64,000 nt of DNA from Candidatus Uhrbacteria bacterium (lineage in GTDB: Bacteria > Patescibacteriota > Patescibacteriia > JACPHY01). The DNA is taken from assembly GCA_016188355.1 (NCBI GenBank), contig JACPHY010000016.1, positions 66,345 to 130,344 of the forward strand, read 5' to 3'. This document shows, in pieces, positions 29,619-32,352 of this stretch. Made by a program: the position numbers and the translations under genes. Position 1 is the stretch's first letter. Every line of letters begins with the position of its first letter. The notes under the pieces were generated by a model that saw only the letters and a program-made list of their open reading frames with translations, was not told where the DNA came from and ran no database searches.

Positions 29619-30413
29619 ATGCACCCCATTCTCGAACGTGAACTGCAGAAGTTGGGACTCACGGAAAAAGAAACGCGAGTGTATCTTGCGGCGCTCGAAC
29701 TCGGTCCGCAGCCGGTGCAGGATATTGCTCGGAAAGCAGGAGTGAATCGTGCCACGACTTACGTGATGATCGAGAGCCTCACCCAAAAGGGGCTCATGAC
29801 CTCGTTTGAGCGCGGCAAGAAACGGCTGTTCAATCCGGAGCATCCCGATCGTCTCCTCTCCATGATTCGGGTAAGAGAGCGAGAGTTGCAGGAGCAAGAG
29901 CGAGAATTCTCGCAATTTTTGCCGCAGCTGCGTGCAATTTCCTCGTCCTCGGGGGAGCGTCCGCGTGTGCGATTTTTTGAAGGTCCAGAAGGACTTCGTG
30001 CGATCCGTGAGGAAATTTTAGCAACCGAGGCATCAGAAATGTGGGCGGCGATTGAGTTTAAGGAGTTGCCGCACGTCCTCTCGCCTGCGGAAAATGATGA
30101 GTTTGAGCGGCGACTCGCGGAGCGTGGCGTGCGGCAGTATGTGTTGTGTACAGGAACAATTGCTCCGGATGCGGTACAGAAACACATGGAACGATATCCG
30201 AACTTTTCCCTTCGGAGCGTCCCTGTGGATCGTTTTCCATTTACGGGAGAGGTGACCGTGTTCGGAAATAAGATTTTTGCTTTCTCGCATCGTGGAAAGT
30301 TGATTGGCGCAGTCATAGAGAGCGAAGAAATTGCGAAGATGCTTCGTTCGGTGTTCCAGCTCGCCTGGGAGGGTTCCCAGCATGTGGGCGCCACTGAACC
30401 TGCGAAGAAGTAA
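29619..30413 (+). CDS. TrmB-family transcriptional regulator
   Basis: N-terminal HTH ILERELQKLGLTEKETRVYLAALELGPQPVQDIARKAGVNRATTYVMIESLTQKGL plus the TrmB C-terminal domain. Confidence 0.7.
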   Translation: MHPILERELQKLGLTEKETRVYLAALELGPQPVQDIARKAGVNRATTYVMIESLTQKGLMTSFERGKKRLFNPEHPDRLLSMIRVRERELQEQEREFSQFLPQLRAISSSSGERPRVRFFEGPEGLRAIREEILATEASEMWAAIEFKELPHVLSPAENDEFERRLAERGVRQYVLCTGTIAPDAVQKHMERYPNFSLRSVPVDRFPFTGEVTVFGNKIFAFSHRGKLIGAVIESEEIAKMLRSVFQLAWEGSQHVGATEPAKK

Positions 30414-30475: not shown

Positions 30476-31029
30476 ACGAAGAGGCTGTGGCGCAAGGAGC
30501 GTGCGGTGCTGGGTGCGCGGGTGCGCGTGTGGTATCGCCGTCACGAGGGGACGGCTAGTTGAGTGCGGTGCGTGCGACTCGGGAGCGAATCGGACGCGGG
30601 ACCGTGTCGGATGTCTTCGGCGACGCCGAAGGGCATCCGATGTCCACGTCCGGTCGGGACGAGCATCCGCCGAGTCCGGCGGCCGATGCGCATCGCCAGG
30701 CCGGCGTCTGCTTTGGTTGCGGCGCGTCCGTGGGGGAGGGCGGAGTGATCCTCCCATCCCACCGCACATGCCCGAATCGGCTCGGTGCCTCTCGTCGCTC
30801 ATTGACGAACATGGGAAACCTCCTCTCTGCACGAGGAGACGCGGTCGTGCTTTCGATGCCACACGCTACCTCGTTCACTCGCGCGAAGCCTGACTCTCGA
30901 CCAGGTAAGGTGCGAATGGAGTCATGGATTGCACTCGTACCGTAGCGCATGCGTGGTTATCCTGTCAAGTGTTGCCGACGTTTGTGTATACGTTATTTGC
31001 TCATTATGGCCAATATTGTCATGCTGTTG

Positions 31030-31058
31030 TTGACATTATCGGCGCTATCTGCTACGTT
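31030..31058 (+). promoter_or_regulatory. Sigma70-type promoter TTGACA-17-TACGTT upstream of the tmRNA-like element
   Basis: -35 at 31030..31035. -10 at 31053..31058, 11 nt before the GGGG 5' end at 31070. AT-rich UP-like region 30990..31029. Confidence 0.5.
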
Positions 31059-31069
31059 GCGCACCAATT

Positions 31070-31179
31070 GGGGACGATCGGCTTCGACGGTGGATGGAGG
31101 TGCTCGAATGGAGCGCTCCGGCATCGCTCGCCGCGGTGCGTATCTGCCGGACGCGGGTTCGACTCCCGCCGTCTCCATC
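31070..31179 (+). ncRNA. ssrA: tmRNA (ssrA)-like tRNA-like domain; unusually compact (about 110 nt), no tag ORF detectable
   Basis: 5' GGGGACGATCGGCTTCGACGG matches the tmRNA 5' acceptor + D-loop-analogue consensus. 3' GGACGCGGGTTCGACTCCCGCCGTCTCCA matches T-arm + acceptor. The 7-bp acceptor pairing has a G3-U70 wobble and A73 discriminator (alanine identity). There is no stop codon in any frame across the 65-nt middle segment. Confidence 0.5.
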
Positions 31180-31416
31180 GGATCGTGGGGGAACCTTCCG
31201 GTTTCCCTCCCGTGCCCCCTTCCCTCCAACCAGGTCACTTGCTCCCTCCGTATGTGGGGTCGGGCAAAGCCCTTCTTCCCCCACATACTCCGGTCGCTGC
31301 GCTCGGGATCGGATGGGGTCCATGATGGGCATCTTGAGGAATCCTCTTGTTTGGATTCCTCTTTTTTATTCCATGCACACGGGTTGTTTTGGTATTTGGT
31401 ACGATACAGGAAACGT

Positions 31417-32352
31417 ATGGTCGAACCCATTGGCCACGATGCGATACTTCGGGCGTTTGATCGCATGATTACGGGCAACCGCTTGGGGCATGCCTATCTT
31501 TTTGTTGGCCCTACGGGTGTGGGAAAAACGACCGTCATGGATTGGATTGCGCATCGTCTCTGGTGTGTGGACTTGATCATGCAGCCAGATGGCTATCGAG
31601 TGCCGTGTGGCGTGTGCGCGACGTGTCGGGCAATCAGTCAGGGGACGCACCCGGATATTCGTCGTGTGGTGGGTGATGCGGATGGGGTGGATGCGATTCG
31701 AGAATGGCGCACCGCATTGCAACGGACTTCGTTGTTTTCCGGGTGGAAGATTGGTATGGTGGAGAGTGTTGATGCGTTGTCGGAGTCCGCGGGGAACGCG
31801 ATGCTCAAGATGCTCGAGGAGCCGCAGGAGCGGACCCTCCTGCTCCTCACCGCTCGGCATGCGCGCGCGCCGCTCGCGACGATCGCGTCACGATGTGCAC
31901 TGGTGCAATGCCACCGGATGCCCGCGGCGGTATTGGAGCGCGTCATGCGGGAGCGCGTGGATGATCCAGAGGTTGCCGCAAACTACGCACAAGAGGCGGA
32001 GGGGTGCCTGGGACGCGCCGTGCGGAGGTGTCTCCCCGAGGAGCGTGCGCGCGAGGCGCAGGAAGATGTTGCGATGCTGTTTCAGGGGAGCATGGTCGAT
32101 CGTTTGCATGCGATCGAGCGCGTGCTGCATGCAGCACCGGAACATCGGGAGGCGGTACGCGCGGAATACGTTCAGATCATTGATCGCTGCCGGCAGTACG
32201 CGCGGATACTGGTGCGGAGAGAGGCGGGCCATCCGCATCGTGTCGCGGCGTTGCTCCCCTGGTTGCGGGTGTTGGCGCAGGGAGAGCGGTATGTGGCGGC
32301 GCATTGTCCTCCGCGTACATTTTTAGAAACATTGAGCGCTTGCTATCCGTAG
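31417..32352 (+). CDS. holB: DNA polymerase III delta' subunit HolB
   Basis: …GNRLGHAYLFVGPTGVGKTTV… Zn-module C-x-C…C-x2-C. …LKMLEEPQERTLLLLTA…IASRC is the clamp-loader signature. Confidence 0.8.
   Translation: MVEPIGHDAILRAFDRMITGNRLGHAYLFVGPTGVGKTTVMDWIAHRLWCVDLIMQPDGYRVPCGVCATCRAISQGTHPDIRRVVGDADGVDAIREWRTALQRTSLFSGWKIGMVESVDALSESAGNAMLKMLEEPQERTLLLLTARHARAPLATIASRCALVQCHRMPAAVLERVMRERVDDPEVAANYAQEAEGCLGRAVRRCLPEERAREAQEDVAMLFQGSMVDRLHAIERVLHAAPEHREAVRAEYVQIIDRCRQYARILVRREAGHPHRVAALLPWLRVLAQGERYVAAHCPPRTFLETLSACYP

Follow-up and report, generated by a model that had tools for sequence, protein, structure and literature searches.

What remains of ssrA, the gene for transfer-messenger RNA (tmRNA), when its messenger part is gone, how does such a gene arise in a bacterial chromosome, and can it still serve the cell? 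These questions are raised by a short element upstream of holB in a 64,000-nucleotide stretch of DNA (hereafter the window) from Candidatus Uhrbacteria, an ultra-small groundwater bacterium of the Parcubacteria group within the Patescibacteria, whose genome is a single metagenome-assembled genome (MAG) built from short reads. An earlier description, made from the letters alone (the sequence-only reading), had taken the element for a tmRNA-like gene that has its own promoter and an authentic tRNA-like domain (TLD) but no tag open reading frame (ORF), and had named an internally deleted ssrA among the possible explanations. A covariance model, synteny with three relatives and a homologous promoter back both that description and that explanation, and it is very probable, as judged by sequence comparison, that the element originated by an in-place internal deletion of an ancestral ssrA.

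On the forward strand, the tmRNA family of Rfam (RF00023) matches positions 31070-31180, a span of 111 nt, with 70.2 bits against a gathering score of 47 (E 2.7e-25 for the whole 64-kb window), which is far above background and far above chance. No other Rfam family attains its gathering score in the window, and tmRNA is the best-scoring match kept within the Rfam clan CL00001, which we take to include the tRNA family. The alignment covers model positions 1-374 end to end, with 42 nt in the place of 304 model positions, so that the room is, as had been argued from the sequence, insufficient for pseudoknots and a tag frame. The hallmarks of a TLD listed in the sequence-only reading are all found: a tmRNA 5′ end at 31070 (GGGGACGAUCGGCUUCGACGG), a T-arm, and a 3′ acceptor strand that forms seven of seven acceptor pairs, including G3.U70, which together with the discriminator A73 provides alanine identity. 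The D-loop analogue (GGCUUCGAC) is present, too. The terminal CCA is not encoded, as UCG comes next after A73, and the CCA of the relatives described below is also incompletely encoded. A resume codon and a tag frame with a stop are absent: all frames are free of stop codons from 31070 to 31322, including the interval 31091-31154 between the D-loop analogue and the T-arm, for which this had already been noted, and ARAGORN reports neither a tmRNA nor a tag in the element, even at a relaxed threshold. Pseudoknots 1-4 (PK1-PK4) are absent as well; the minimum free energy (MFE) fold shows the acceptor stem, a helix P2a of 8 pairs, only two hairpins and the T-arm (Table 1), and is not significantly more stable than the folds of shuffled sequences (z = -1.6 to -1.9). 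With a complete TLD and no messenger domain, the element has the make-up of a tmRNA without a coding sequence (CDS-less tmRNA).

That this is an ssrA gene by descent is indicated by the same locus in relatives, by which we mean the contigs encoding the nearest homologues of the window's holB. The window and its relatives have a common gene order, MreB-NUDIX-GT4-TrmB-[gap]-holB-BNR protein-RRF-GlyRS, with a gene of the TrmB family (PF01978) at the equivalent position in L001, L003, L004, L076 and L077, and the flanks of the window element are colinear with those of the relatives. In L003, L035 and L036, a bona fide ssrA with a tag frame occupies the genomic position of the window element, and the length of these genes (353-355 nt against 111 nt) agrees with the earlier remark that canonical tmRNAs are several-fold longer. 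When the window element is aligned with the three full-length genes (alignment A2), it proves to retain the 5′ end through GAGGUGC, at the entry to P2 and pseudoknot 1, as well as the last ∼49 nt 5′ of the T-arm (UCGAAUGG...GGAC), while the middle is missing: the gene is ∼240 nt shorter, and the rest of pseudoknot 1, the resume codon, the tag frame and pseudoknots 2-4 are gone. The 5′ half of hairpin A, which spans the deletion junction, aligns with the relatives' GAGGUGC. Within the retained parts, acceptor pair 5:68 is A-U in the window and G-C in the relatives, and the closing pair of the T-stem is G-C in the window and C-G in the relatives, both compensatory double changes.

The promoter, TTGACA-17-TACGTT, was confirmed base by base, with 11 nt between TACGTT and G1 at 31070, as read before. 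It is absent from the listing of a generic sigma-70 scan, as no more than 3 of the 6 positions of its -10 box agree with TATAAT, but the full-length ssrA genes of the relatives have the same promoter layout (TTGACA-17-TAACAT in L003, TTGACA-17-TACCAT in L035 and L036) and the window's own holB has a -10-like box TACGAT at 31400-31405, so that TACGTT fits a local -10 type, TACNNT. A full-length ssrA at the same spot in three relatives and homologous promoters thus identify the element as the ancestral ssrA, internally deleted. By the same token, the suggestion that it might be a different alanine-accepting tRNA-like RNA finds no support, as tmRNA is its best match and its locus is orthologous to ssrA.

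Table 1. Coordinates of the features discussed, in the window and on contigs of relatives.
Feature	Sequence	Position	Strand	Remarks
TrmB-family regulator gene	window	29619-30413	+	upstream synteny anchor; ORF
ssrA promoter	window	31030-31058	+	-35 TTGACA 31030-31035, 17-nt spacer, -10 TACGTT 31053-31058; read from sequence
Truncated ssrA, TLD only	window	31070-31177	+	108 nt to discriminator A73; Rfam, MFE fold, position orthology
Acceptor stem, 5′ strand GGGGACG	window	31070-31076	+	pairs with 31170-31176; includes G3.U70
D-loop analogue AUCGGCUUCGA	window	31077-31087	+	conserved GG and UUCGA; high posterior probability against Rfam consensus GAucuGGaUUCGAC
Helix P2a, 5′ strand CGGUGGAU	window	31088-31095	+	MFE and centroid folds; paired in Rfam alignment
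Hairpin A (GGAGGUGCUC-GAAUG-GAGCGCUCC)	window	31096-31119	+	spans deletion junction; fold and alignment
Hairpin B (GCAUCGC-UCGCC-GCGGUGC)	window	31121-31139	+	fold; taken by ARAGORN as anticodon arm, CGC
Helix P2a, 3′ strand AUCUGCCG	window	31142-31149	+	pairs with 31088-31095; 8 pairs
T-arm GCGGG-UUCGACU-CCCGC	window	31153-31169	+	sequence and Rfam
Acceptor stem, 3′ strand CGUCUCC, and discriminator A	window	31170-31176, A at 31177	+	sequence and Rfam
3′ trailer	window	31178-31335	+	strongly structured; hairpins 31187-31208 and 31250-31288
Intrinsic-terminator-like hairpin	window	31336-31371	+	9 pairs, then T-run TTTTTTATTC; predicted end of ssrA unit before holB promoter
holB (DNA polymerase III delta′)	window	31417-32352	+	downstream synteny anchor; Pfam PF13177
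Full-length tmRNA	L003	4558-4910		353 nt; 199 bits; tag ANNDSIPLAA; upstream of holB
Full-length tmRNA	L035	738-1091		354 nt; 162.5 bits; tag GNQPVLAAA; upstream of holB
Full-length tmRNA	L036	527-881		355 nt; 166.8 bits; tag GNQPVLVAA; upstream of holB
ssrA-less TrmB-holB gap	L001	2747-3456		
ssrA-less TrmB-holB gap	L004	4284-5000		
ssrA-less TrmB-holB gap	L076	1046-1888		
ssrA-less TrmB-holB gap	L077	986-2460		

Other relatives have no ssrA at this place. In L001 (GCA_016206015.1), the closest of them (holB 60% identical), the gap yields neither a tmRNA, even at E <= 1, nor a TLD motif, and the gaps between TrmB and holB in L004 (GCA_030646955.1), L076 and L077 are likewise free of tmRNA and TLD motifs; in L078, no tmRNA is found within the 441 nt available upstream of holB. 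The sequence upstream of holB in L001 has an exact copy in an independent Logan assembly. The intergenic regions of the window and L001 are 66.6% identical over a BLAST match of 329 nt, and the counterpart of the ssrA promoter in L001 has decayed to TGGACA-17-TTTGTT. A remnant of the short form in L001, hinted at by a MAFFT alignment, was rejected, as local alignment scores are at the level of shuffled sequences. In a neighbour-joining tree of holB (one fast-evolving protein, with low resolution), the ssrA-less lineages are interspersed among the ssrA-bearing ones, which, taken at face value, implies several independent events. Together, these data indicate that lineages of this Uhrbacteria-like family have repeatedly lost ssrA or moved it elsewhere, as seen at this locus only. 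The TrmB-holB gap of L077 is enlarged and contains, at 2008-2093, a long G+C-rich hairpin with many weak Rfam matches of the miRNA-precursor type.

We searched for the short form elsewhere by scanning for a tmRNA 5′ end followed, after 40-70 nt, by a T-arm. Among 185,579 GTDB species representatives, one genome per species, this pattern returned 23 loci, with none in Patescibacteria (the window's genome is not itself a species representative), and among JGI metagenome records it returned 39 contigs, none of which resembles the window element; in IMG/VR, it was found on 7 viral contigs. The form being unseen in GTDB representatives, JGI metagenomes and relatives, the window element is a singleton, and chromosomal TLD-only genes are very rare globally. 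As a class, TLD-only relatives of tmRNA are not rare, and all 14 that we tested match RF00023 over positions 1-374 with 57-103 bits; ARAGORN detects none of the 16 TLD-only elements scanned.

A chromosomal group among these is a TLD-only RNA of ∼85 nt in 21 species of Candidatus Poribacteria (L012-L014, L016-L029 and L031-L034; e.g., L021:4650-4735 on the plus and L013:5099-5184 on the minus strand; typical sequence GGGGGUGAAAGGAUUCGACGGAGGACGAAAGCGUGGUUGCUUUCAAUUUUCUCCGGAAGUGGGUUCAAUUCCCACCACCUCCA), for which we found no paper. Five of the Poribacteria loci were scanned with RF00023, giving 64.6-71.4 bits, and ARAGORN misses the RNA. In its alignment, 98.9% of the cells are paired and 6 pairs covary by double changes, a value reached by none of 500 shuffles, and in two species it is flanked by genes for a PLP-dependent decarboxylase and a Na/Ca exchanger. 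The conserved flanks indicate that it is chromosomal and vertically inherited, and its conservation in 21 species together with the covariation that it is clearly under selection.

Viral and virus-like contigs carry dozens of diverse TLD-only genes of ∼85-115 nt (L005-L011 from IMG/VR, with 57-78 bits on RF00023, and L037-L075 from metagenomes), including a marine group, starting GGGGGUGAAUAGGUUUCGAC, on a dozen or more contigs; some of the virus-contig genes keep a stretch that resembles pseudoknot 1. On one of the viral contigs, a Pistol ribozyme lies ∼200 nt upstream of the TLD gene (L011:13481-13542), and on another a HEARO RNA is found elsewhere on the contig (L007:794-1003). Two further cases stand apart: 1) in a Pseudescherichia MAG (L030:4791-4892, plus strand), an E. 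coli-type ssrA with an internal deletion, 102 nt long and scoring 103.5 bits, in which ...GCAUGCCGA is joined directly to CCGAGGAUGUAG..., and which could be a true deletion or an assembly error, and 2) on a contig binned as Candidatus Caldarchaeales (L015:1726-1832, plus strand), a 107-nt TLD-only gene with an encoded CCA and 93.2 bits, the contig being probably viral or misbinned bacterial.

What, then, is the status of the window element today? We give an even chance to the view that it is a relic, that is, a recently disabled allele, caught midway in the loss of ssrA, in a clade in which the gene repeatedly disappears from this locus. The internal deletion of ∼240 nt would have removed pseudoknot 1, the resume codon with the tag frame and pseudoknots 2-4, and would have left the promoter, a complete TLD, two short hairpins that close P2a, and the terminator. 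The RNA would still be made and matured, by RNase P cleavage, 3′ trimming and addition of CCA, after which it could receive alanine from alanyl-tRNA synthetase and associate with SmpB and EF-Tu; as it offers no template on which translation could resume and terminate, it can neither tag proteins nor carry trans-translation to its end by itself. In E. coli, the endogenous tmRNA is inhibited by an expressed TLD-only RNA (PMC4131195, PMC11915505), so that an expressed short allele would be tolerated only where trans-translation is already dispensable. That the short form is unique and that there is nothing at the locus in the sister lineage and in others is what a relic would look like, and leaves the case for one, in our judgement, evenly poised; several loss events having been sampled, one recent intermediate among them is not improbable. 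Several observations weigh against the relic, nevertheless. All retained parts are flawless, from the perfect -35 and the lineage-typical -10 box through the conserved nucleotides of the TLD, the stems, P2a and the hairpins to the terminator, unlike the sister L001, which is ssrA-less and has lost everything. If the flanks are neutral (66.6% identity), an unconstrained TLD would be expected to stay intact for only a small fraction of the branch, and the deletion would therefore have to be recent. The Poribacteria covariation shows that selection can keep TLD-only RNAs in bacteria, and the absence of ssrA from the relatives' gap does not prove its absence from their genomes.

The principal rival explanation is that the element is a functional, tag-less rescue RNA kept by selection, which is possible but rather unlikely. 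In this case, the alanyl-TLD would enter stalled ribosomes with SmpB and EF-Tu and accept the nascent chain, and the peptidyl-TLD might be freed by an ArfB-type hydrolase or by drop-off and peptidyl-tRNA hydrolase. The model follows the one proposed for the CDS-less tmRNAs of jakobid and oomycete mitochondria and some plastids, which are conserved together with SmpB (PMC11915505, PMC3590771). The intact promoter, TLD, P2a and terminator would suit it, as would an interior that closes P2a neatly, the compensatory nature of every acceptor and T-stem difference from the relatives, and an architecture like that of other TLD-only RNAs (57-103 bits), including the Poribacteria family of 21 species. 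The compensatory changes could, however, predate the deletion, the stability of the fold does not significantly exceed that of shuffled sequences, the form occurs once, being absent from relatives, GTDB representatives and JGI contigs, with an empty locus in the sister, and tblastn with approximate SmpB sequences of E. coli and Thermus returned no match, either in the 64-kb window or in the loci fetched. It is rather unlikely, in particular, that the 108-nt RNA is the cell's only ssrA, kept by selection for tag-less rescue with SmpB outside the insect endosymbionts.

The remaining explanations fare less well. A normal, full-length ssrA could lie elsewhere in the genome after relocation or duplication, which would make the element a decaying extra copy; tmRNA is nearly universal in bacteria (PMC4131195, PMC11915505), and the ssrA-less gap in several scattered relatives could be explained by relocation, too. 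We consider this improbable, there being no second tmRNA in the 64-kb window and no duplicate in any fetched locus; moreover, given the inhibition of full-length tmRNA by TLD-only RNA in E. coli, a short copy that kept its promoter intact would come at a cost. An artefact of assembly or binning, with ∼240 nt of a full-length locus dropped during metagenome assembly, is suggested by the origin from a single short-read MAG, for which an exact look-up of the holB and TrmB proteins shows no independent assembly on record, and by the MAG origin of one other internally deleted ssrA found in the scan, that of Pseudescherichia. It is hardly probable, because no repeat is available that could have caused a collapse: blastn of the element, the trailer and the upstream region against the window returns chance 12-14-mers only. 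The colinear flanks and a retained interior that forms hairpins of its own, rather than merely joining the two ends of the P2 helix, also speak against it. Least credible, and in our view very improbable, is a different tRNA-like gene, be it the 85-nt tRNA-Ala(CGC) that ARAGORN calls at 31095-31179 or a TLD decoy inserted by a mobile element or phage, of the type of DS6A. The tRNA call uses hairpin B as the anticodon arm (loop CUCGCCG) and an alternative acceptor pairing of UGGAGGU with GUCUCCA, and was rejected: its D-stem has 2 pairs, its 3:70 pair is G-C and not G.U, its 1:72 pair is U-A, and its position 37 is C. As to a decoy, TLD-only RNAs are common on virus-like contigs, but the window element is surrounded by housekeeping genes that the relatives have kept too, and neither an integrase nor a phage gene is among these neighbours. 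Both variants are at odds with a locus and promoter orthologous to those of a chromosomal ssrA.

The sequence between the element and holB does not make up for the missing messenger part. With the terminator hairpin included, the fold of 31181-31375 has z = -3.1, equalled by none of 200 shuffles, but the trailer has no Rfam match and no tag-like ORF, with its only stop codon at 31323, and local alignments of it with the relatives, including their tmRNAs, score at the level of shuffled sequences. A transfer of the messenger domain into the trailer was thus rejected, the match to a permuted layout being weak as well: the two-piece permuted tmRNA (RF04321), which the sequence-only reading had named for comparison, reaches only 18.7 bits against a gathering score of 47 (E 0.18), mostly through the T-arm and a chance GGGGUCG at 31257, and this putative second 5′ strand has no D-loop analogue. 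Further downstream, the window's holB product is 100% identical to P0001, which is HYV74_04690 at NCBI, from Candidatus Uhrbacteria bacterium on a 175-kb contig.

Upstream of the element, the TrmB-holB gaps of the window and seven relatives contain TGTCAAG (window 30963-30969), which on the minus strand reads CTTGACA, a -35 box, and with TACGGT 18 nt further along that strand resembles a divergent promoter, possibly that of a short ORF on the minus strand at 30555-30812 of the window; a tblastx comparison of the minus-strand frame with L001 gives 45% identity over 88 amino acids without stops, which supports a conserved frame. The small ORFs of L003 and L077 have the motif GGAAxPLxDGxxRxWCPD in common, but are only candidate coding sequences in G+C-rich DNA, and tblastn of the relatives' small ORFs between TrmB and ssrA against the window is not significant.

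Compared with known systems, the window element shares with the standard one-piece tmRNA (RF00023) its locus, promoter type, TLD, G3.U70 and A73, P2a and T-arm, and differs from it in lacking the messenger part (111 nt against 353-355 nt in the relatives). It also has a standard 5′-to-3′ order, and the two-piece permuted tmRNA resembles it only in being another non-standard layout. The element is best filed with the CDS-less, TLD-only tmRNAs, a known but rare kind. These include the jakobid and oomycete mitochondrial RNAs (RF02544), those encoded by ∼65-bp genes in Mallomonadaceae plastids and that of mycobacteriophage DS6A, all of which likewise have little beyond a TLD; the organellar members are conserved and found together with SmpB, whereas that of DS6A is regarded as an inhibitor (PMC4131195, PMC11915505, PMC3590771). 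These RNAs are organellar or phage-borne, whereas the window element is found in one genome, at the ancestral locus of a bacterial chromosome, and is longer, with P2a and two hairpins. Nasuia and one other bacterial group possibly belong to the same TLD-only class (PMC11915505, PMC4131195); 9FT-COMBO-53-11 sp001772805, a name that we did not meet in further papers, is one of the two bacterial groups said to be possibly without a tag frame (PMC11915505). Lineages with reduced genomes that reduce or lose trans-translation are similar to the window's clade in this respect, but in Carsonella PC ssrA has been erased in place by substitutions, while the window shows a clean internal deletion. Incomplete ssrA genes in bacterial chromosomes also arise as pseudogenes and fragments by integration of genomic islands (PMC4131195); such fragments lack one end of the gene (typically, they are 3′ duplicates at att sites), whereas the window element has both its ends, paired with each other, lacks the middle and has no integrase nearby. 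Similar in build is the Poribacteria RNA, equally chromosomal and composed of acceptor stem, D-loop analogue, P2a, internal hairpin and T-arm, with a similar Rfam score, but it is shorter, has a single hairpin and is conserved in 21 species, while the window element has no conserved relatives. What is new here is thus a TLD-only gene on a bacterial chromosome, at the ancestral locus and by clean internal deletion, which is unique so far.

The finding has a bearing on annotation. Rfam reports the element as a tmRNA by a full-length model and ARAGORN as a spurious tRNA-Ala(cgc), both of which misstate what the locus is capable of, so that pipelines can score trans-translation as present where tagging is impossible. 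The covarying TLD-only RNA of Poribacteria and the TLD-only genes on virus contigs may be of wider interest than the window locus itself. For the organisms, the point is that tmRNA and SmpB are treated as nearly universal in bacteria, the documented exceptions being a few extreme endosymbionts, besides organelles. In one family of Patescibacteria, a single locus now provides a series, with a full ssrA in three lineages, a TLD alone in one and nothing in four, which indicates that free-standing, ultra-small bacteria have repeatedly lost ssrA or moved it elsewhere. Within this series, the window element is a natural minimal tmRNA with which to ask what a TLD does without its messenger part. Should it be under selection and the cell's only ssrA, it would be the bacterial counterpart of the CDS-less tmRNAs of mitochondria and plastids, in a clade of the candidate phyla radiation that repeatedly dispenses with ssrA.

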